IMG/VR virus record: IMGVR_UViG_3300037493_005562
Source: an uncultured virus (IMG/VR IMGVR_UViG_3300037493_005562)
Lineage: Duplodnaviria > Heunggongvirae > Uroviricota > Caudoviricetes
Length of the DNA stretch: 64,000 bases
Strand: one strand, 5' to 3'
Shown here: positions 1 to 49,752 of the stretch, in pieces
Position numbering within the stretch: position 1 is the first letter of the stretch
Layout: the number at the start of each line of letters is the position of its first letter
Notes under the pieces: model-generated
What the model was told of the DNA's origin: nothing
Database searches by the model: none
Seen by the model: the letters and a program-made list of their open reading frames with translations, nothing else
Position numbers and translations under genes: made by a program

Positions 1-38
1 CTTCAAAGGCCAACTGGATCACCAGAACCACACCCCGA
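1..38 (-). tRNA. tRNA-Gln(TTG), 5' part only (truncated by window edge)
   Basis: Reverse complement TCGGGGTGTGGTTCTGGTGATCCAGTTGGC-CTTTGAA-G: acceptor, D arm and anticodon loop visible. Confidence 0.7.
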
Positions 39-43
39 TGAAG

Positions 44-118
44 TGCGGGAGACAGGACTCGAACCTGCACGATAGCCACGTTCCGAACGTGGTGGCCTAG
101 CCCTTGGCCCACTCCCGC
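44..118 (-). tRNA. tRNA-Pro(CGG)
   Basis: Cloverleaf; anticodon arm CCACG-TTCGGAA-CGTGG; T loop TTCGAGT. Confidence 0.9.
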
Positions 119-122
119 AAGA

Positions 123-200
123 TGGAGACCGATCCGGGACTCGAACCCGAACAACTGGTTTTGCAAACCTGTGGCCGCTCCACGGCGACACCGACCGGTC
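123..200 (-). tRNA. tRNA-Cys(GCA)
   Basis: Loop TTGCAAA, U73 discriminator, encoded CCA. Confidence 0.88.
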
Positions 201-207
201 ATGAATA

Positions 208-279
208 TTGGGGATAGATGAATCGAACATCTGCCTGCGGTTTCAGAGACCGCCGTACTACCATTATACAGAATCCCCA
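208..279 (-). tRNA. tRNA-Gln(CTG)
   Basis: GCGGT-CTCTGAA-ACCGC; TGGGGAT/ATCCCCA acceptor. Confidence 0.9.
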
Positions 280-287
280 ATGAATAC

Positions 288-365
288 TGGTGGGCGCAGC
301 AGGGCTCGAACCTGCGCATTTCCCGGTTATCAGCCGAGTGCCTTTACCAACTTGGCCACACGCCC
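288..365 (-). tRNA. tRNA-Ile(GAT)
   Basis: CTCGG-CTGATAA-CCGGG; encoded CCA. Confidence 0.92.
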
Positions 366-379
366 ATGAAAGAAACAAA

Positions 380-453
380 TGGCGGGAACGGCAAGAATCG
401 AACTTGCAATCGGCACCTTAACAGGGTGCTGCTAACCATTCAGCTTCGTTCCC
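380..453 (-). tRNA. tRNA-Asn(GTT)
   Basis: GCACC-CTGTTAA-GGTGC; encoded CCA. Confidence 0.9.
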
Positions 454-458
454 GAGAA

Positions 459-536
459 TGGAAGCGGGAGTGAGACTTGAACTCACGTGGAACAGGGTAT
501 GAGCCTGTGCTGGGGCCAACTCCAGTCTATCCCGCA
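459..536 (-). tRNA. tRNA-Met/Ile2(CAT)
   Basis: ACAGG-CTCATAC-CCTGT; unpaired 1:72; encoded CCA; Met versus Ile2 identity not resolved. Confidence 0.85.
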
Positions 537-541
537 ACAAA

Positions 542-616
542 TGGTGTTCCCACGGAGAATTGAACTCCGGTTTCCGGATTGAGAATCCAGCGTCCTTGCC
601 GCTAGACGATGGGAAC
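542..616 (-). tRNA. tRNA-Glu(CTC)
   Basis: CTGGA-TTCTCAA-TCCGG; encoded CCA. Confidence 0.92.
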
Positions 617-624
617 GTGAAGAA

Positions 625-696
625 TACGGGTGAGAGGGATCGAACCTCCGACCTGCTGGTTCCAAACCAGCCGCGCTCCCCCTGCGCTACACCCGT
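625..696 (-). tRNA. tRNA-Pro(TGG)
   Basis: GCTGG-TTTGGAA-CCAGC. Confidence 0.9.
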
Positions 697-707
697 GTGA
701 AGAGAAC

Positions 708-782
708 GGTGGGGTCGAGGGGGGTCGAACCCCTGTCTCTCGACTTAAAAGGACGGTGCTCTGCCGATTGAGCTACGACCCC
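708..782 (-). tRNA. tRNA-Lys(TTT)
   Basis: Loop CTTTTAA; canonical D and T arms; anticodon stem has mismatches. Confidence 0.85.
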
Positions 783-845
783 AGAGGTTTGGAGTCGTCG
801 GATTTTCGTGGCATCGCTGTCTCCGTGTCTGGGGTTGTGGGTGAA

Positions 846-921
846 TGGTGGGCAGCATCGGGCTCGAACCGATCGTCACCGGATTAAGAGTCCGGGGCTT
901 CACCATGGTAGCAAGCTGCCC
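846..921 (-). tRNA. tRNA-Lys(CTT)
   Basis: CCGGA-CTCTTAA-TCCGG; encoded CCA. Confidence 0.9.
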
Positions 922-932
922 ATGAACGAAAA

Positions 933-1010
933 TGGCGGTACGTACGGGATTTGAACCCGTGATCTCCAGCGTGACAGGCTAGCGGCCACTCCAGACTGGC
1001 CCAACGTACC
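933..1010 (-). tRNA. tRNA-Asp(GTC)
   Basis: CTAGC-CTGTCAC-GCTGG; encoded CCA. Confidence 0.92.
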
Positions 1011-1021
1011 GTAAGAAAAAG

Positions 1022-1097
1022 TGGGGTGAGTGAGGGGACTTGAACCCCCTCCACAGGCTTCACAGGCCCGCGCTCTACCGGTTAAGCTACACCCACC
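1022..1097 (-). tRNA. tRNA-His(GTG)
   Basis: CGGGC-CTGTGAA-GCCTG; G-1:C73; encoded CCA. Confidence 0.92.
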
Positions 1098-1109
1098 ACA
1101 AGAAAAGAA

Positions 1110-1182
1110 TGCCCACACGCGGACTCGAACCGCGAATCTTCGGCTTCGGAGGCCAACGCTCTATCCATTGAGCCATGTGGGC
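1110..1182 (-). tRNA. tRNA-Arg(CCG)
   Basis: TTGGC-CTCCGAA-GCCGA. Confidence 0.9.
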
Positions 1183-1193
1183 GAGATTGAGAG

Positions 1194-1290
1194 TGTACCC
1201 GGCGAGAGAGCGTCGTTGTTAGGCGACACATCTCCCGCCGGGAGTCACTACCCACATCGGATGGCGCCGACGTGGGGTTTCTCTCGTACA
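1194..1290 (-). ncRNA. Unknown structured RNA (three-way junction) inside tRNA array 1
   Basis: TGTAC/GTACA closing stem, 10-bp hairpin CCCACGTCGG/CCGATGTGGG and long hairpin CCCGGCGGGAGA..TCTCTCGCCGGG; no T loop. Confidence 0.5.
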
Positions 1291-1328
1291 ATCGATCTGG
1301 AGTTTTCAAGGAACTTGAAACATGAAGA

Positions 1329-1407
1329 TGGTGGGGAAAGCGGGAGTCGAACCCGCACTATTCCTGATTCGTAATCAGGTGGCCTGTCCAATTGGCCGGA
1401 TTTCCCC
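1329..1407 (-). tRNA. tRNA-Arg(ACG), first gene of array 1
   Basis: CCTGA-TTACGAA-TCAGG; encoded CCA. Confidence 0.9.
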
Positions 1408-1425
1408 ATGTCGTTTTCGGGGCCC

Positions 1426-1469
1426 AAAAACCAGAAACCCCGGTCGCTCTTTCGAGGGACCGGGGTTCC
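1426..1469 (-). terminator. Attenuator terminator upstream of tRNA array 1
   Basis: GGAACCCCGGTC-CCTC-GAAA-GAGC-GACCGGGGTTTC followed by TGGTTTTT. Confidence 0.85.
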
Positions 1470-1494
1470 GAGTGGCTGGGCTTCCTTTCGGTTG

Positions 1495-1692
1495 CTACTC
1501 CAGCTTCTCTCCCTGGTCCCGCGTCGCGGGCTTCTCGTCGCGCTCTTCGCGCCCGATACCATGGCCGATGGTATTCATCGGGATGGCGGCGTCTTGCGTT
1601 CCCTGCGCGCGGCCAACACACGGACACACGTCGACGACGGCCGCGGTTTTGACCGTGACTGGCGTGTTCGTGATGTTGCGGGTGAAGGACAC
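1495..1692 (-). CDS. Putative attenuation leader peptide of tRNA array 1 (65 aa)
   Basis: GTG start after GAGGT; lies between promoter and terminator; its 3' end forms the antiterminator arm; codons match array-1 anticodons. Confidence 0.75.
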   Translation of the reverse strand: MSFTRNITNTPVTVKTAAVVDVCPCVGRAQGTQDAAIPMNTIGHGIGREERDEKPATRDQGEKLE

Positions 1693-1784
1693 GGTAGGCG
1701 AACCTCGAATGAAGGGATTGTGGGAGACCGTGCTATCCGGCCCGTCGAGCGGGTCAATCGGTAGGCGATGTCTCTCGTGCTTTT

Positions 1785-1813
1785 AAGGTACTCGATACGG
1801 TTACGGGGCGCAA
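1785..1813 (-). promoter_or_regulatory. Sigma70-type promoter of tRNA array 1
   Basis: TTGCGC-N17-TACCTT; 27/28 nt identical (1788-1815) to the array-2 promoter (27505-27532). Confidence 0.8.
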
Positions 1814-2093
1814 GGCGACATCGAAAGAAAGTACATGTGTTGGCGATCGAAGCCGGAAAGTTCGCGTCTATACCGACAGGGGTGAGGGTAACGCTGAACA
1901 GGGGCCAGACACCCCCAGGCGTCACGATGAAGAACCCACGCGCTCCAGGATCTGGTGAGTAAACGGCAAAGGCCCCATCAGCGCCAAGGGCGTCGGAGCG
2001 CGTGTCCCAAGCCTCCCCGCACGTCTTCTGTCCTGTAAGGCTTGCTATCAGGCTTCGTAGCCACTCGACATCCTGGTTGATCATCCGCGTCTC

Positions 2094-3798: not shown

Positions 3799-4512
3799 TC
3801 ACTTGGCGTAATCGTCGCAGATGATCGCCGACCCAACGAACTTCGGACCCTCGTACAGGTTGATGACACGGCTCACGTGGGCCAAGTGCTTGTGCGGCGC
3901 GTTGGGTACCAGGAAGCGGATCGAACAGGGGATGCTGTCCCCGAGGGTCTTCTCACCCTCGTTGTCCTCATCGAAGTCGAGATGCACCGACCACATCTCA
4001 TCGTTCACGAGGGTCGTGCAGGCGTACGACGCTCCAGACACGGGTGTCTTCCGACCCCCTTCGGCCAGGAACGTGACCCGGGCGGGGGCTGCGCAGAACG
4101 TCATCAGCCACGCAGTGTCTCCGTAGGGTTTGTCGTCCTTCGTGAGCGGGATCGTGTCCGCGGCCATTCGCAACATCGCGCGCCAGGACAAACGCTCGTC
4201 CTGCTTTTCGAGCATCCTCGAAGTGTGCGCCTTCATCTCGAACGTGCCCGTGGCGAAGAGCTTGAAGAGCAGCAGCGTCTCGAACTGGAGAAAGCCACAG
4301 GTGTAGGCGATCCACAGGAGCACGCCCCGGTACCCGTCCGTCTTCGGGTCCCGCAGCAGCTTCGAGATCGCCCGGTCCAGGGCCCTGCCCTGGGTCTCGT
4401 CCCCGGTTTCCAGGTACTCGTCCATCAACGAGATGGCGGTCTCTTTCCGGGTGGCGGGGTCGTCCGTGGACAGAAGGAGGGTGATGCGAGGATCTGGATC
4501 GGAACTGTTCAC
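3799..4512 (-). CDS. Hypothetical protein
   Basis: GTGA start/stop overlap with upstream gene; GC3-biased codons. Confidence 0.6.
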   Translation of the reverse strand: MNSSDPDPRITLLLSTDDPATRKETAISLMDEYLETGDETQGRALDRAISKLLRDPKTDGYRGVLLWIAYTCGFLQFETLLLFKLFATGTFEMKAHTSRMLEKQDERLSWRAMLRMAADTIPLTKDDKPYGDTAWLMTFCAAPARVTFLAEGGRKTPVSGASYACTTLVNDEMWSVHLDFDEDNEGEKTLGDSIPCSIRFLVPNAPHKHLAHVSRVINLYEGPKFVGSAIICDDYAK

Positions 4513-5720
4513 TTCGTGCCTCCTAGAACCCGAATCGAAGTTCCGACACGAGGCCACGCACCGTTGCGCGCGACACCGTGCTCGATCTGGTCGCGGGCGT
4601 TGTCTTTGTCCGTCCCCAAGTACAGATGCCTTGGATCACAACACCCGGCACTCCCGCGCCCGCAACGGTGGAGTACGTGGATCCTTGGGGGGACCTCACC
4701 CACATAGAGAGTGTACGCGAGTCGATGGGTCAAATAGCTCTGGCCCCTATAGTTGAGGTAGCCGTACCCCGCGCTGTGCTTCTTGCCTGTGTACACGAGG
4801 CACCCTTCTGGATCTACAGCGCATTCTCGACGTAACCGTTCAACCAGGACAGCTTTGTCGGTGTCCGAAAGAAGCAACGGCTTCGCAGGCTCCTTTTTAC
4901 GGGGCCCGGTCGGGGCCTCGACCGGCGTTTGAGGCTTGTCGAGTTCGCCGCGTACGATACAGCCCACGACGTTGCCGGACAGGCCGTACTTGCGACCCAA
5001 GCTCCGGTGCGACTGGATAGGGTCTATCACATATTCCGCCTGGATGGCCCGACGCGTCTCTTCAGGTACTTTGGTTTCCCCACGGCGCGACTCGATCTTC
5101 CGACGCTCTCCCCGACGGAGCCTCGAAATGTTCTTCTGCGATGTTCCCCATTTTTTGGCGAGAACGGATGCTGGTTCCTGAGACGTACGAATATCGTTAA
5201 CCGCCTCGACGGAAAGCTCGGCGCGTCGCGGAAGCGGATCGGGCAGGTGCCAATACGTTGTTCCGTTCAGGGCACGAGCCATCGAAGATATAGCAACACC
5301 CGCTTCTCGCGCGAGGTCTCCGACGCGGACATTCTCGTCCCGGTATCTTCGACGTGCTTCAGTGACAGCCTCGTCGGTCATCTTTGCTCGACCGGCTCGC
5401 TCTCCGGGGGGTCGAGGAAGACGTCCGCGCTCAACGCAATCGCGCATGTTGTCTACTGCGGTACCCAGTTCCAAGTGCTCGACGTTGACGCACACTGGAC
5501 GATCGCACTTGTGACGTAGGTAAAGTCTCTTGTCTGGCTTGGGACCATGACGCTGTTCCCACAGGATACGTGCGACCTTGATGCCTCCTTGGGGGCCCGG
5601 TATACGACCGTACCCCCAATCGTCGACGTAACCCGTCCAGTCGTGGCACGCGGTACCGAGCCTTGGGTGGATGGGTCCCTCGGTGTTGATGAGCGAAGCC
5701 ACATCAGAGGACGTCTTCAC
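4509..5720 (-). CDS. HNH endonuclease with two HNH domains flanking HTH-like repeats
   Basis: CHDWTG..GYG..RHKCDRPVCVNVEHLELGTAVDNMRD and CLVYTG..GYG..HRLAY..LHRCG..CCDPRHLYLGTDKDNARD. Confidence 0.85.
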   Translation of the reverse strand: MKTSSDVASLINTEGPIHPRLGTACHDWTGYVDDWGYGRIPGPQGGIKVARILWEQRHGPKPDKRLYLRHKCDRPVCVNVEHLELGTAVDNMRDCVERGRLPRPPGERAGRAKMTDEAVTEARRRYRDENVRVGDLAREAGVAISSMARALNGTTYWHLPDPLPRRAELSVEAVNDIRTSQEPASVLAKKWGTSQKNISRLRRGERRKIESRRGETKVPEETRRAIQAEYVIDPIQSHRSLGRKYGLSGNVVGCIVRGELDKPQTPVEAPTGPRKKEPAKPLLLSDTDKAVLVERLRRECAVDPEGCLVYTGKKHSAGYGYLNYRGQSYLTHRLAYTLYVGEVPPRIHVLHRCGRGSAGCCDPRHLYLGTDKDNARDQIEHGVARNGAWPRVGTSIRVLGGTK

Positions 5721-6025
5721 GTACGCACCGCTCCCTCGGGAACAAACGCCTCGGGCTTCACGACCCGAAACGTCAGTCGGTCCGCGACGCCCGCGTGATC
5801 GACACACACCAACGCCGCAGCTTTTACGGGCTGCAACAGACGCAGCGCGTGATCCAGAGCCGCGTGTTCGTCCTTGTGAACGCCGTTCACTTCGCAGTAG
5901 CGCGCGAACTGCTCCTCCGCGGGCTCGGGCGGACCCGGCTGCGTAATCTGCCAGAAGGCGTACCTCGTTCCCGTGTCGTTGTAGTCCGCGAGGTCGAGCA
6001 ACTCGATCCAAAACCCCTGTGTCAT
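5717..6025 (-). CDS. Hypothetical protein
   Basis: AGGAGAAGG RBS; operon packing. Confidence 0.6.
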   Translation of the reverse strand: MTQGFWIELLDLADYNDTGTRYAFWQITQPGPPEPAEEQFARYCEVNGVHKDEHAALDHALRLLQPVKAAALVCVDHAGVADRLTFRVVKPEAFVPEGAVRT

Positions 6026-13311: not shown

Positions 13312-13658
13312 GACTTCTTCCTGTGGTCGCCGCGTTCGATCTCTTTGGCGAAACTCCCGCCGTAGTGGTCCCACAAATAGACCAGGGTTGCCTCCTTCTC
13401 GGTCTCGATCTCGCCACGGAGACGTTCAACCTCTGCGAGCAGGTAGGTGAGGTCGGCGGGAGCATTGGCGATCAACGCCGCGTGTGCGTGACCCTTCTCG
13501 TCCCCAGGAAGTCCTTCCTCGACCGTACATACGGACCAGGGATCTCCTGGGGCGTCCCTGTCCACGACTTCAACATCGCAAAGGTTACGGGGGTCTACGT
13601 GCCACGGGCCCGGTACCACGGCCGCAAGCCGTGACTTGATGTCGTCGATTCGGTTCAT
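13308..13658 (-). CDS. Ead/Ea22-like protein (paralog of 11587-12048)
   Basis: IKSRLAAVVPGPW..ALIANAPADLTYLLAEVERL; shared C-terminus IE.GDHRKK. Confidence 0.65.
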   Translation of the reverse strand: MNRIDDIKSRLAAVVPGPWHVDPRNLCDVEVVDRDAPGDPWSVCTVEEGLPGDEKGHAHAALIANAPADLTYLLAEVERLRGEIETEKEATLVYLWDHYGGSFAKEIERGDHRKKS

Positions 13659-14737
13659 CGAAGTCCCTCCGCGAATCCGTTCGGCTTGATGTGCCTTGTC
13701 CAGTGCGCCTGAGTTTGAACGTGCCCTGCGCGAACCCACTTCAAGAGCTTCTTCCTGAACTCTGAGAAGCGGAACCCTGCCGTCGTTCGCACGACGTAGC
13801 CTTCGGCCTCGGCCGACCAGTGCGGAGTCGGGACGAACTTCCGCAGAAGCGCTTCATCCCACGGGCCGCGGTACAAGACCGGCACCGTGTGGAGTCCGAG
13901 CATCTCAGCGTACGCGACGGTGTCATCCCACGAGAGCGCCTCGTTCTTCTCGTTCCAGATCGAGAACACGAAGAACACCGCAGGCAGGTTCTCGTACCGA
14001 ATCGAGTGCTCGCCCCACAGATTCTCGCCCGCCGCGCGCCACCCTTGAGGCAGCTCGTGGGCGATCTGTCCATGCAGTGCCTTCACGCGGTCGCGGTCGA
14101 TGCGCGGAGCGTACTCCAACGAGCGTGCGTGGACGTAGTCGGCGTACATGTTGGTGTTCTCGCCGTCGAGTTTCAACGTAACGACGACTTCCTGACCTTC
14201 GAGTCCCGAGAGGTCGTTCTGAACACGGTCGTCGTCCGTAACCCCGGGGGACCACGGGGCGTGATGAGATCGGGGATACTTCACGTAGGGCGTGAACAGG
14301 TGAAGGACTTCGGCCAGCACCTTCTGCACGCTCTCGTCGAAGAACAACTCGCCGCGTAGACGTGTCCCGTTCGCCAGAATGGCGTTGCCCCACTTGTCGT
14401 ATCTTTCGTCGGAGTAGAGGTGATTCGGGAGCACAATGCGCGCGATGCCCGCAGCCTCGCGGGCTTCCTCGACGGAGACGAGGGTCTGCTCGCACCGAAG
14501 GTGGTCGGCCTCGCAAACGGTGACGCCGTTGTCGAGGAAGTACCCTCCTTCCTCCCCAGGAGCGGTCCAGAGTTTGCGTTCGATCAGATGGTGAGCGTCA
14601 TGTTTGCCTTCGGGCGTCTCGCCCGCGGTCTTCCCGCAGAGCACGCACTTGTGCCCGTCCCGCGCGAACACGGTGACGCGGAACTCGTCCCTGGTCAGGA
14701 GCTTGTGCGCCGCTGGCGCTGTGTGGACGTGCGACAT
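13655..14737 (-). CDS. HNH endonuclease-RNA ligase (Rnl2-like) fusion
   Basis: N-terminal VFARDGHKCVLC..DAHHL..NGVTVCEADH; KYPRSHH; motif I TLKLDGEN; EGYVVR; KWVR. Confidence 0.85.
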   Translation of the reverse strand: MSHVHTAPAAHKLLTRDEFRVTVFARDGHKCVLCGKTAGETPEGKHDAHHLIERKLWTAPGEEGGYFLDNGVTVCEADHLRCEQTLVSVEEAREAAGIARIVLPNHLYSDERYDKWGNAILANGTRLRGELFFDESVQKVLAEVLHLFTPYVKYPRSHHAPWSPGVTDDDRVQNDLSGLEGQEVVVTLKLDGENTNMYADYVHARSLEYAPRIDRDRVKALHGQIAHELPQGWRAAGENLWGEHSIRYENLPAVFFVFSIWNEKNEALSWDDTVAYAEMLGLHTVPVLYRGPWDEALLRKFVPTPHWSAEAEGYVVRTTAGFRFSEFRKKLLKWVRAGHVQTQAHWTRHIKPNGFAEGLR

Positions 14738-15144
14738 CAGCCGTCCCACTCGGGACGGTACATCGATTGGGCGAGGCGACGAGCTGCTTCAAGCGTTGGG
14801 TGCTTTCCGTAGAGCTTCGCCCCAAGGCGAATCATCTTCATGCAGGCACGCGCTTCGTCTGGGTCTTTGCCGTCCAGGGCCCGAATTAGCGCGTCGACTT
14901 CACGATCAGGATTGAACGTCGTCTCGGGGACATCGTAAGGCCACTCCCACTCGGGTCGGTTGAACTCGGTCAGGAAGAGATTCCCAAACGCTTCGTCGAC
15001 TCCGCCGAAGTCCTTGACGTAGCGACGAACGTTCTCCAGTTCGAGCCGCGCTTTAGGTACGTCCTTCGCATCCAACGCCATGCTCATAAGTAGCAGCGCG
15101 GCGCTTGCTTGCTCCCGCGCCCAAATCTGGTCGGACGTTTTCAT
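14737..15144 (-). CDS. Hypothetical protein
   Basis: TGATG coupling on both sides. Confidence 0.55.
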   Translation of the reverse strand: MKTSDQIWAREQASAALLLMSMALDAKDVPKARLELENVRRYVKDFGGVDEAFGNLFLTEFNRPEWEWPYDVPETTFNPDREVDALIRALDGKDPDEARACMKMIRLGAKLYGKHPTLEAARRLAQSMYRPEWDG

Positions 15145-25507: not shown

Positions 25508-25597
25508 TGGCGGAGCGCGTGGGCCTCGAACCCACCAGGGCCTTTCGACCCCCCTCTGGCTTCCAACCAGTGCCGGTCCCCGGACCGGTTCCGCTCC
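25508..25597 (-). tRNA. tRNA-Ser(GGA), atypical 6-bp D stem with 4-nt loop
   Basis: CTGG-TTGGAAG-CCAG; D arm CCGGTC-CGGG-GACCGG; GCCA end. Confidence 0.8.
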
Positions 25598-25733: not shown

Positions 25734-25735
25734 AG

Positions 25736-25817
25736 GGTGCCCCGTGCCGGGATCGAGTCGGCAAGTCTTTCGACGCTGGCGTCTAGGGCCAGTGCGTTTG
25801 CATTTCGCCAACGGGGC
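25736..25817 (-). tRNA. tRNA-Leu(TAG), degenerate T and D loops
   Basis: CTGGC-CCTAGAC-GCCAG; variable arm GTC-GAAA-GAC; T loop CTCGATC. Confidence 0.7.
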
Positions 25818-25826
25818 AAAGAGAAG

Positions 25827-25986: not shown

Positions 25987-26754
25987 CTAGACTTTACCTG
26001 CTCGCAGTTTAGTCCAATATCCCCGTGCTGGAAGAGCAATGCCTCGGCGTCTACACCGATGGGCGACTGCATTACCCGAAACCCCTAATTGTCGTGCGAT
26101 AACGCTTGGTGGAACCTGCCACACCTTTACCGCCAGTTCCGAATCTACAGGCCACTGAGCACGTTCCTTCCTTGGAGGGTTACACTGTGAGCAAGTACGG
26201 GAAGCTCGCTGCTTGGTATTCCCACACTCACACAAGGAAGGGAGAGCCCTCCGCCGAGTCTTCCTACCTGCGGGACCTACGCCGCCATCCGTGTTCGTCT
26301 GGGAATGGCAGTTAGGGCACACGAAGCGTAGATTCTCCGGCCGATTATCCCAAGCTTTTCCGTTGATATGGTCCACCTCCAGCCGTAGAGGCCGCCCATT
26401 CCAGAACGGTTGTAGCCCACACTCACTGCACTTCAACTCCCGCCCAATCTCGATAAGCTTGCGCCGAAGGAGAGCGCCACGACACGGCCGGGTCAACTCG
26501 GGCCCCACAACAAGGATCTCGTCGGGCCTACGATACGAAGGAGACTTGCGGGCACTCCACGGTAGTAGACCCCGTTGCTGGGCACCTTTCATGTGGCTCA
26601 CATCCAAGCCGTACCTAACGATCAATCGTTGAATGTGACCGTAGTTTCCCCCGGAGGCGCGGAGACCAAGTACCCTGAGTACCCCCGCGATTGAAGGGGA
26701 AGTCTTAACGACTGGAGCTAACAATTCTCTGGTGTACTTGGTAGTCTTGCCCAT
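25987..26754 (-). CDS. HNH homing endonuclease inserted in tRNA array 2
   Basis: KCSECG..WNG..LEVDHINGKAWDNRPENLRFVCPNCHSQT; own promoter TTGACG-N17-TACAGT. Confidence 0.9.
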   Translation of the reverse strand: MGKTTKYTRELLAPVVKTSPSIAGVLRVLGLRASGGNYGHIQRLIVRYGLDVSHMKGAQQRGLLPWSARKSPSYRRPDEILVVGPELTRPCRGALLRRKLIEIGRELKCSECGLQPFWNGRPLRLEVDHINGKAWDNRPENLRFVCPNCHSQTNTDGGVGPAGRKTRRRALPSLCECGNTKQRASRTCSQCNPPRKERAQWPVDSELAVKVWQVPPSVIARQLGVSGNAVAHRCRRRGIALPARGYWTKLRAGKV

Positions 26755-26791
26755 GACCGCACTGTATGCCAATACCAGAAATACGTCAAGG

Positions 26792-26868
26792 GGTGCCGTC
26801 GGGGGAACTCGAATCCCCACATTACTGCCGTCTCAGGGCAGCTCCTCTACCAATTGGGATACGACGGC
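26792..26868 (-). tRNA. tRNA-Leu(GAG), no variable arm
   Basis: CTGCC-CTGAGAC-GGCAG; 6-nt variable loop; A73. Confidence 0.88.
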
Positions 26869-27375: not shown

Positions 27376-27492
27376 CTACGTCGCCGCCCCCGGCGTCGAA
27401 AGCAGATAGGAACTCGACCATGAGCTATAAAAGCTCGTGGTGAGGGCCGTAAAGCTCTCGGACAGACGGGTGGTGGCGCGCAAGGTCTTCAT
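27376..27492 (-). CDS. Putative attenuation leader peptide of tRNA array 2 (38 aa, MKTLRATTRLSESFTALTTSFYSSWSSSYLLSTPGAAT)
   Basis: Starts ~9 nt below the -10 box; run of 13 S/F/Y/W/L codons; stop codon lies inside the antiterminator. Confidence 0.82.
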   Translation of the reverse strand: MKTLRATTRLSESFTALTTSFYSSWSSSYLLSTPGAAT

Positions 27493-27530: not shown

Positions 27531-27576
27531 GGGCGGCGCAAGAAAAAAGTGAGGGGTCGGCGTTCAATGCCATAAA

Positions 27577-47684: not shown

Positions 47685-48394
47685 AACCCTACTACCGGGC
47701 GGTAGCGGGGGTGGAGGTGTTTCACCGGATGGTCTCAGACCCTCAGGTGGCTTCCGATCTGGCGTTCTACGTGACGGGAGGTTCGACAAGTCGAGTCTCT
47801 ACCGCCGCCACGGACATCCAGCGCATGTTGCAGCAACTCAGGAGTGCGATCCCGTACACCTTCGAGCGCAAGCTGGCCGACATGGTGTTTTCTTTGGGGC
47901 TTGACGACAGGCCCCCGCCGCCGGGAGTCTCGATTCCTCCGTTGATCGCCCCGGCGATCTGGATCGGCTTCGAGACTCCGATCCCCCTCTCGTCGGTCGA
48001 GGCTTTGCAGCACGAACAGGCGCTCAACGTCTATAAGCACTGGGAGAGGGGCGAGGTGCTCGGCTTCCTTGTTGCGGATGATAACGGCACCCCCGTCGTT
48101 TTCGAGTTCGTATCGGACGGCCGAGACCCGACGACAAACATCCCTCTTTGGCTCTGTCGCTACATGCTTGACGAGTCCTCGCCTCCCGTACCAGGGTGGT
48201 GTGGGCCGAGAGACTACTTCCCCTGGCGCATTGCGGCACTTATCGGGATCGTGCAGGACGCCGATGAGAGCGTGGTCATCGAGCAGACGAAAGCCTCCTA
48301 CGGTCTCCGTCGAGAACGAGAACAGGTCGAACGTAGAACGCGTACAAACTTGTCGGGACTAACGACGGGGTACACGGTGCGTTTGCGCGAGTGA
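47681..48394 (+). CDS. Hypothetical protein
   Basis: GTGA overlap. Confidence 0.55.
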   Translation: MKPYYRAVAGVEVFHRMVSDPQVASDLAFYVTGGSTSRVSTAATDIQRMLQQLRSAIPYTFERKLADMVFSLGLDDRPPPPGVSIPPLIAPAIWIGFETPIPLSSVEALQHEQALNVYKHWERGEVLGFLVADDNGTPVVFEFVSDGRDPTTNIPLWLCRYMLDESSPPVPGWCGPRDYFPWRIAALIGIVQDADESVVIEQTKASYGLRREREQVERRTRTNLSGLTTGYTVRLRE

Positions 48395-48465
48395 TCCCCC
48401 CTGCCTACCACATCGCGCCTCGTCGCGCTATACTTCGCGGGACACCACTCCCCGGAGCGTACTCC

Positions 48466-49752
48466 GTGTCCAGGATACTCGCACACAAGATCGCTCTTGA
48501 TCCCAGCCCCGACCAGCGCGTAGCGCTGGCGAAGGCCGCTGGCTGTGCGCGAGTCGCTTACAACTGGGGTCTCGCGGAGTGGACTCGTCAGTATGCCGCT
48601 CACAAGGTAGATCCTACCCTTCCTAAGCCGAATGGTGCCGCGCTTCGGAAGCAGTGGAACTCCGTAAAACACGAGCTGTTTCCCTGGGTGTCGGAGTCCC
48701 CGAAGGATGCGAACATCGAAGCGCTGTTCGACTTGGAGAAAGCGTTCAAGTCGTTCTTCGAAAAACGTACGAAGTACCCTAAGTTCCACTCGAAGCGGAA
48801 GAACACTCCCAGTTTCGGAGTGAGCAACGACAAGTTCCGCTTCGCGGGTAAGAAGGTTCGCCTGCCTGTGATCGGGTGGATCAAGACACGTGAGGCACTA
48901 CGCTTCGAAGGGAAGATCCTCTCGGGTCGAGTGACGTGCCGACGAGGTCGATGGCATCTATCTGTTCACGTCGAACTTCCGGAAAGCTACGCGAGACATG
49001 CAGCGCCTACGGATACGATCGTAGGTATTGATCTCGGGGTGTTGACGCTCGCGACCCTCTCGAACGGGACGGTGATCGAGAACCCTCGCGCTCTACGCAA
49101 CGCACAAAAACGACTGCATCGTGCTGAACTGTCCGTCGCTAGGAAACGTCGTGCATCGGACAAGAAACGCGGCGAACGCAAGAAGGGCGAAAAGCGCGAA
49201 ACGTCGAAACGACTACACGCGGCGTATCGAAAGCTGTCTCGCGTTCACGTCGATGTGGCGGCGGTTCGAGCAGATGTGATCCACAAAACGACGACGAAGA
49301 TCGCCGAGACCTTCCAGACCGTCGTCGTTGAGGATCTCGCGGTCCGCAATATGACACGTCGTGCGAAAGGTCGCGGGCGCGCTGCGAAGGCGGGGCTGAA
49401 CCGTTCGATTCTCGACGTGGGGTTTGGCGAGTTTCGTCGTCAACTCACCTACAAGCTCCCTCTTCATGGTGGGACGCTCATCGTCGCAGATCGCTTTTTT
49501 GCATCTTCGAAGACCTGTTCCGGCTGCGGAACGGTCAAGAAGGACTTGAGTTTGAAGGACCGCACTTTCACGTGCGGAGCCTGTAGCCTGTCAGTCAATC
49601 GTGACTTGAACGCGGCTTGCAATCTACGTACCCTCGGCTTGAGGGGAACTAACGCGCGCGGACATCGTGGAAGACCAACTGGAGACTCGTCTCCGGCGGC
49701 AACGGTGGTTGAAACGCGAACTCAAACACTGCACACTTGTGTGCACGTTTAA
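48466..49752 (+). mobile_element. tnpB: Solo TnpB RNA-guided endonuclease (IS607 or IS200/IS605 type), no TnpA
   Basis: AHKIALDP..AAGCARVAYNWGL; RuvC VGIDLGV, VVVEDL, NRDLNAA; Zn finger SSKTCSGCG..CGAC. Confidence 0.92.

Follow-up and report, generated by a model that had tools for sequence, protein, structure and literature searches.

The DNA analyzed here is a stretch of 64,000 nucleotides (nt) of the IMG/VR virus record IMGVR_UViG_3300037493_005562 (hereafter the window, meaning this whole stretch), which derives from a large uncultured phage, has a G+C content of 61% and carries two arrays of transfer RNA (tRNA) genes. Upstream of array 1 lies a 65-codon open reading frame (ORF), leader 1, which holds a codon for every tRNA visible in that array, largely avoids the codons read by array 2 and is followed by a strong terminator-like hairpin directly before the first tRNA gene. 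A second short ORF, leader 2, stands before array 2 and shows the opposite preference. We propose, at a probability of roughly 60%, that leader 1 belongs to a multivalent, ribosome-operated leader-peptide transcription attenuator gating phage tRNA array 1. The proposal stands on direct observations, namely the sequence anatomy of the locus, its codon statistics, the coding signal of leader 1 and the conservation of its frame.

Codon Content of the Two Leaders

Array 1 comprises 14 tRNA genes detected by ARAGORN at positions 43–1407 (−), of which 12 also match the Rfam tRNA model at the gathering score. In transcription order they are Arg-ACG, Arg-CCG, His, Asp, Lys-CTT, Lys-TTT, Pro-TGG, Glu-CTC, Met, Asn, Ile-GAT, Gln-CTG, Cys and Pro-CGG. 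The 5′ part of a putative further tRNA, cut by the window edge (about 1–42, −), has an anticodon loop CU-UUG-AA that reads by eye as Gln-UUG; neither ARAGORN nor Rfam calls this fragment. An earlier sequence-only reading of the same DNA had counted 15 visible anticodons, 14 of which are confirmed by ARAGORN, while the fifteenth is this by-eye reading of an edge-cut fragment. Array 2 encodes Leu-CAA, Tyr, Leu-CAG, Leu-GAG, Trp, Ser-GCT, Ser-CGA and Ser-TGA by ARAGORN, together with Ser-GGA (25509–25594, −) and Leu-TAG (25735–25818, −), which appear at a lower ARAGORN threshold only. With the low-threshold calls included, array 2 contains all the tRNAs with a long variable arm (Leu, Ser, Tyr), plus Trp.

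Leader 1 occupies 1495–1692 (−), starting with GTG at 1692 and ending with TAG at 1497–1495, and encodes the peptide VSFTRNITNTPVTVKTAAVVDVCPCVGRAQGTQDAAIPMNTIGHGIGREERDEKPATRDQGEKLE; the 65-codon leader described earlier is present as such. Its codon content was compared with a background of 14 trusted window genes (7,188 codons), using a strict cognate rule under which a tRNA with U34 that has a C34 sister must find an A-ending codon. Leader 1 covers 15/15 visible tRNAs under this rule, including those that depend on the rare codons AAA, CCA, CAA, TGT and CAT. Random 64-codon draws cover 10.5 on average (P = 0.0014), and full coverage is still significant (P = 0.005) when array-2 codons are excluded from the draws. 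All the cognate codons that the sequence-only reading had listed do occur. Codons read by array 2 number two of 64, against 17.7% expected (P = 4e-4), and the joint probability of full coverage and this avoidance is 5e-6.

The same picture emerges at the level of amino acids. Ser, Phe and Leu are found once each, at the ends of the peptide (VSF...KLE), and Tyr and Trp are absent, exactly as had been noted; measured against the trusted genes, the five are depleted as a group (3/64 versus 20.9% expected, P = 3e-4). Base composition was considered as a cause of this depletion and rejected, as Val, Ile and Met codons, which likewise have T in the second position, make up 11/64 of the leader while Leu has one. 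Array-1 amino acids of mixed kinds fill 14 of the final 18 codons (REERDEKPATRDQGEKLE), a segment that runs up to and into the predicted antiterminator described below. The signal in leader 1 is complete coverage together with avoidance, rather than runs of a single codon.

Leader 2 (38 codons, 27376–27492, −; ATG at 27492) mirrors this pattern. Array-2 codons account for 17/37 of its codons (P = 9e-5) and cover 9/10 array-2 tRNAs (P = 7e-4), with array-1 amino acids reduced to 5/37 (P = 4e-5). A Fisher test on the compositions of leader 1 and leader 2 gives 2e-7. Such comparisons are a fair test, since the amino acid categories were fixed by the tRNA content of the arrays and not by the leaders, even though the idea itself came from inspecting the data.

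Coding Signal and Conservation of Leader 1

Codon usage and conservation both support the translation of leader 1. Its codon-usage log-likelihood is 33.5 bits, compared with a mean of 28.4 bits (standard deviation 13) for 65-codon windows of trusted genes and with 27.3 bits for the 99th percentile of off-frame windows. A control set of 58 spurious ORFs of 50–90 codons located inside trusted genes yielded a maximum per-codon score of 0.371, so that none (0/58) reaches the 0.516 of leader 1.

A search of 5.8 billion proteins returned a sole relative besides the leader's own product, the 64-amino-acid protein P0005. The leader's own product is on record from a contig of 153,576 nt. P0005 shares the GTG start and the end of leader 1, is 89% identical to it over the aligned part and differs by two indels, both in frame, which shows that the leader frame has been kept. 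The composition is retained as well: Ser, Phe and Leu once each, Tyr and Trp absent. The gene for P0005 shares a 38,418-nt contig with that of P0003, a 74%-identical homologue of the product of the neighbouring gene 3799–4557. When a profile of the leader was run against 1.84 billion representative proteins, P0005 was the only credible hit, the three other matches being multi-stretch ones in long proteins. The leader 1 peptide matches no Pfam family at E ≤ 0.1, and a homologue search with leader 2 returned the window's own protein only.

Shared Box Upstream of Both Leaders

A promoter-like 27-nt box (CTTGCGCCCCGTAACCGTAYCGAGTAC) is located upstream of leader 1 at 1788–1814 (−). It presents TTGCGC (1813–1808), a 17-nt spacer and TACCTT (1790–1785), with a direct repeat CCGTA-A-CCGTA inside. 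Two copies exist in the 64 kb, at 1814–1788 and 27531–27505, both on the minus strand, where the chance expectation is 0; the second copy precedes array 2 and differs by one pyrimidine change. Its recurrence there argues that the box is functional, and a promoter would be the presumed function. Between the box and the start codon, a putative 5′ untranslated region (UTR) read from the sequence (1693–1782, −) contains GAGG at 1706–1703, 10 nt upstream of the GTG, and is not unusually structured (z +0.76).

The leader 1 and leader 2 regions align in the box only. Recent duplication was considered as a source of the parallel design and rejected, because the two leaders cannot be aligned outside the box.

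The box is also traversed by other reading frames. A 169-codon ORF (1575–2084, −) starts upstream of it, reads it as LAPRNRIEY and overlaps the first 39 codons of leader 1 out of frame; its coding score is limited to the first ~75 codons, and neither Pfam nor PHROG gives a match for it. Before array 2, an ATG at 27573, 4 nt past the stop codon of the upstream gene, starts a frame that runs through the box in the same register (LAPRNRTEY) and on into leader 2.

Predicted Terminator and Antiterminator

Downstream of leader 1, folding identifies a terminator-like hairpin, GGAACCCCGGUC...GACCGGGGUUUC (1469–1434, −), followed by UGG and a UUUUU run (UGGUUUUU; 1430–1426). Its energy is about −28 to −30 kcal/mol (z −5.1), and 0/200 shuffles fold as well. 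The terminator proposed earlier before array 1 is real as a hairpin with a U-run (−30 kcal/mol, with the z score just given), and its terminating activity is a prediction from sequence. A survey of both strands of the window found 32 T5 runs, eight of them preceded by a hairpin of −20 kcal/mol or better; the two strongest such sites are those before arrays 1 and 2 (−32.3 and −27.7 kcal/mol), with the leader 1 hairpin the strongest. A simple consensus terminator scan calls neither of these two hairpins. The first tRNA of array 1 begins just 18 nt past the U-run, leaving no space for a separate promoter.

The competing structure would be an antiterminator at 1456–1520 (−; −29.4 kcal/mol), which folding predicts as the lowest-energy structure of the nascent RNA before the 3′ arm of the terminator is made. 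Its outer helix is predicted as GGGACC.GGG / CCC.GGUCCC and its inner hairpin as GAG..GCUGG..CC-GAAA-GG..CCAGC..CUC, with the UAG stop codon (1497–1495) lying within the 5′ strand of the inner hairpin. Judging from the usual ribosome footprint, the 5′ strand of the inner hairpin, together with part of the outer arm, would be occupied by a ribosome positioned at UAG. The layout recurs in leader 2 in a different sequence, its UAG likewise falling in the predicted inner hairpin. Both leaders combine the box, an ORF, a predicted inner hairpin holding the UAG, a predicted outer helix that engages the 5′ arm of the terminator, and a tail GGGGUUUC..UUUUUGGG.

Minimum-energy folds of leader 1 also include a small hairpin, CCCGC-GAC-GCGGG (1511–1532, −), whose GGG is common to the 5′ arm of the antiterminator (GGGACCAGGG, 1520–1511). 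This element may act as an anti-antiterminator.

Proposed Mechanism

Promoter activity, termination, the switch itself and the direction of regulation are all deduced from sequence, and the following scheme is conditional on them. Transcription would start at or near the shared 27-nt box, and the 65-codon leader would then be translated. As the 3′ end of the leader emerges from the polymerase, the first structure to fold would be the 65-nt antiterminator (1520–1456), which would sequester the 5′ arm of the terminator. With fast decoding, the ribosome would reach the last codons and UAG in the 5′ half of the antiterminator and melt it; the terminator hairpin (1469–1434) and U-run would then form, and transcription would stop 18 nt short of the first tRNA. 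If the tRNAs for Arg, His, Asp, Lys, Pro, Glu, Met, Asn, Ile, Gln or Cys codons were scarce, the ribosome would be slowed at some point along the leader and arrive late, the antiterminator would persist and array 1 would be transcribed. The outcome would be decided by a kinetic race between ribosome and RNA polymerase.

As leader 1 avoids Ser, Leu, Tyr, Trp and Phe codons, it would be blind to a shortage of array-2 tRNAs, and leader 2 would be blind in the reverse sense. The result would be negative feedback on decoding capacity, separate for the two tRNA subsets, with the two circuits kept apart.

Evidence Against the Proposed Attenuator and Alternative Explanations

A number of observations weigh against an attenuator. 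The codon hypothesis arose post hoc, from inspecting the data. In leader 1 the enrichment of array-1 amino acids is no more than mild (35/64 versus 45.3% expected, P = 0.08), and tandem runs of one regulatory codon, a hallmark of classical attenuators, are missing, with no codon repeated more than twice in tandem; in a long leader that contains the full codon set the delays would add up, which could account for the absence of such runs. Thr is over-represented in both leaders (8/64, P = 0.048; 8/37, P = 0.002), by ACC and ACG only, and no Thr tRNA is in view. The sequence-only reading had described leader 1 as rich in Val, Thr, Ala and all four Gly codons. All four Gly codons do occur, but Val, Thr, Ala and Gly together are not enriched (26/64 versus 33.9% expected, P = 0.16), Thr alone being mildly high. 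In leader 2, eight Thr and four Ala codons coexist with an array 2 that contains neither Thr nor Ala tRNA, and codons of this type may be neutral filler in both leaders. Given this and the background level in leader 1, the further prediction of Val, Thr, Ala and Gly tRNAs to the left of the window is not strictly implied by the attenuator model. Such tRNAs further left in array 1 are plausible, since a phage with at least 25 tRNAs probably has them somewhere. The prediction is not a sharp test and is weaker than originally stated.

The regulatory elements raise difficulties of their own. The box is not called by a sigma-70 consensus scan, TTGCGC-17-TACCTT falling below the threshold of 9/12 matches, and the two layouts differ: leader 1 has a 5′ UTR of ~86 nt, and the ATG of leader 2 lies 9 nt past the second hexamer of the box. 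What had been described as the same promoter before both arrays is thus a shared box, whose identity as a promoter is presumed. The antiterminator was evaluated by keeping the terminator arm fixed and dinucleotide-shuffling the upstream 70 nt. Although its total energy in leader 1 is low compared with the shuffles (P = 0.016), at least 9/12 arm nucleotides are paired in 12% of them, and the energy gain is not distinctive (P = 0.155); leader 2 behaves similarly (P = 0.27 for arm pairing, 0.23 for energy gain). The fold involving UAG and the 5′ arm of the terminator is obtained as the sequence-only reading had described it, but pairing of this extent is not rarer than in shuffled sequences (P = 0.12–0.16), and the predicted antiterminator carries no evidential weight alone. 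At full length, the terminator with the inner hairpin (−52.6 kcal/mol) is favoured over the antiterminator state (−45.9 kcal/mol) by 6.7 kcal/mol; a switch would therefore have to work kinetically, as classical attenuators do.

Leader 1 has a single known relative, known from its proteins only (P0003, P0005), and the last 28 residues are identical in P0005, which is equally compatible with a functional small protein. Four further phage tRNA regions were inspected briefly, those of an uncultured 595-kb phage (L002), Myrna (L003), the T5-like HildyBeyeler (L004) and Sixama (L005), and none showed a clear codon-matched leader. In HildyBeyeler, the small ORFs before tRNA blocks are unenriched in matching amino acids (all P > 0.01), and nothing obvious was seen in the small ORFs before the tRNA blocks of the other three. 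The codon-matched leader design is not universal among phage tRNA arrays.

Leader 1 could instead be an ordinary small phage gene, encoding a functional hydrophilic 65-residue peptide and followed by its own terminator, with array 1 expressed by leaky read-through or from an unrecognized start and the codon match a by-product of composition. The stop codon ~25 nt before the terminator stem is a normal gene–terminator layout, codon usage is gene-like, the 28 C-terminal residues are 100% conserved in the relative and the antiterminator does not exceed chance. We nevertheless regard this explanation as unlikely. It would have two unrelated ORFs behind the same box acquire opposite compositions, each matching its own array (Fisher 2e-7), and would leave full strict coverage that extends to rare codons (P = 0.0014) to coincidence. 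The peptide also has no Pfam match at the threshold used and one true homologue among the 1.84 billion representatives, and there is no promoter space between the U-run and the first tRNA from which the array could be expressed independently.

Alternatively, the leader could be translated for another purpose, such as RNA processing or stability or the shielding of the long, untranslated tRNA precursor from Rho or RNases, or the hairpin could terminate transcription partially and constitutively, holding the array at a fixed low level with no tRNA sensing involved. The strong hairpin directly before the first tRNA and the favoured terminator state would fit such a role, and the structured 146-nt spacer within the array (1183–1328, z −6.1) suggests processing elements. 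This leaves unexplained both the coverage of the own array combined with avoidance of the other and the position of UAG, in both leaders, inside a hairpin that reaches the 5′ arm of the terminator, and we consider it improbable. Still harder to sustain is a chance ORF in G+C-rich intergenic DNA between a conserved box and a terminator. A 65-codon open frame is not rare at 61% G+C (~0.13 per frame, estimated from base composition), and the post hoc origin of the hypothesis speaks for caution here too, but the codon-usage score unequalled by any of the 58 spurious ORFs, the frame kept in the relative across two indels and the joint codon statistic of 5e-6 make it very improbable.

The attenuator remains our preferred reading. 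The earlier description of a parallel attenuator with a complementary codon set is partly supported, by the codon statistics, the coding signal, the ORF kept in one relative and the hairpin; the antiterminator has turned out not to be statistically distinctive, and the promoter is a presumption.

Comparison with Known Systems

Genes for amino acid synthesis or for the charging of tRNAs are the textbook targets of leader-peptide attenuation. Enterobacterial examples include the multivalent leaders of ilvGMEDA, ilvBN and thr, as well as trpL, hisL, leuL and pheL. The arrangement before array 1 resembles such amino acid operon attenuators in its putative promoter, short ORF, predicted intrinsic terminator and predicted alternative hairpin on the 5′ arm of the terminator, in a stop codon sited so that a finishing ribosome would block the alternative hairpin, and in the proposed sensing of more than one amino acid. 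Unlike them, it would control tRNA genes, so that the quantity sensed would be the product itself, that is, decoding capacity. It also differs in using 65 codons for ~11–15 amino acids, in lacking tandem runs, in matching no Rfam leader family and in its phage setting. The downstream genes are at least 14 tRNA genes and neither amino acid biosynthesis nor aminoacyl-tRNA synthetase genes, which places the locus outside the classical family.

The pheM leader of pheST, through which an aminoacyl-tRNA synthetase operon is attenuated, is similar in applying leader-peptide attenuation to a gene of the translation apparatus in response to the supply of charged tRNA; it differs in reading a single amino acid (Phe), in its protein-coding target and in its location on a bacterial chromosome. 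T-box riboswitches likewise report tRNA status through a choice between terminator and antiterminator in a leader RNA upstream of translation-related genes. They bind uncharged tRNA directly and need no ORF, whereas here the ribosome would be the sensor, and no T-box model matches the window. In an Rfam search of positions 1–2200 at E ≤ 1, tRNA-type and chance matches were the only ones obtained, with no Trp, His, Leu or Thr leader model among them, and the whole window yields only tRNA at the gathering score.

Dense same-strand tRNA arrays broken by HNH endonuclease genes and small ORFs are shared with the tRNA clusters of Myrna, T5-like phages and Sixama. What sets the present phage and its relative apart from the four regions compared is that isotypes are sorted into two arrays, each of which has its own matched leader. 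In Myrna, a 25-codon GTG ORF lies ~260 nt upstream of the first tRNA of an array of more than 30 tRNAs, and a short hairpin with a T-run (CACACCC..GGGTGTTTTCTCC) stands ~25 nt before that tRNA.

Full-text searches, within the part of the literature that they opened, found no account of leader-peptide attenuation before tRNA genes or arrays. If the proposed attenuator is true, phage tRNA arrays would not be constitutive "codon-usage patches" but feedback-controlled units reporting the decoding capacity of the infected cell. This would be relevant to the question of why phages have tRNA genes at all and to the contest between tRNA-cleaving host defences and the replacement tRNAs of phages. We speculate further, with more doubt than confidence, that separate isotype-sorted tRNA arrays of large phages are gated by codon-matched leaders that gauge the decoding speed of host ribosomes for each codon set and switch on a replacement tRNA set only upon depletion of the corresponding part of the pool, forming a virus-encoded tRNA-depletion sensor coupled to counter-defence. 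Host anticodon nucleases or phage-induced turnover of host tRNA could be the causes of such depletion. The locus constitutes a compact, testable design, with two leaders of complementary codon sets in one genome, where swapped or recoded leaders should swap the response.

Genomic Context and Search for Relatives

The window has no close DNA-level relative among GenBank phages: megablast gave zero matches, and blastn matches were confined to single tRNAs. Its proteins include HNH endonucleases, an RNA ligase, a Dda-like helicase, a TnpB-type transposase and a 1,209-residue protein carrying a peptidoglycan-binding domain. In tblastn searches against the same phages, the RNA ligase is ~53% identical to ligases of Caulobacter jumbo phages and the helicase reaches 28% identity, with zero phage matches for two other large proteins of the window. 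A 26-nt pattern of the box has 0 matches in collections of viral, metagenome and genome contigs, and single-protein scans of viral contigs for relatives returned nothing. A search with alignment A1 retrieved one 1,029-nt fragment (L001) from metagenome contigs and nothing from viral or genome contigs; the leader alignment A2 gave zero matches in viral contigs.

The stretch itself is present in sediment metagenome runs, with no RNA run listed among those that carry it, and two of four sediment runs provide contigs (737 nt and 3,566 nt) that extend to the left of position 1 by 533 nt and ~2.8 kb. Array 1 varies between strains: a second sediment run has 334 other letters in place of 205–452 (Gln-CTG, Ile, Asn), with matching flanks. 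The leader region (742–2200) is identical in that contig, and the leader is invariant wherever the runs covered it.

The structured spacer within array 1 lies between Arg-ACG and Arg-CCG on the minus strand and folds into three hairpins (−62.9 kcal/mol); it has no Rfam match. The RNA ligase gene (13655–14749, −; PHROG 24030, E 8e-119) is located between the two tRNA arrays. A role in tRNA repair is possible for its product and would suit a scenario of tRNA depletion.

Genes for HNH endonucleases (2159–2986, 4509–6011 and 25987–26820, all −) adjoin the tRNA arrays or sit inside them; one of the three has two HNH domains, and one interrupts array 2. At 48391–49752 (+), the phage genome contains a TnpB/IS605 OrfB-type transposase gene.

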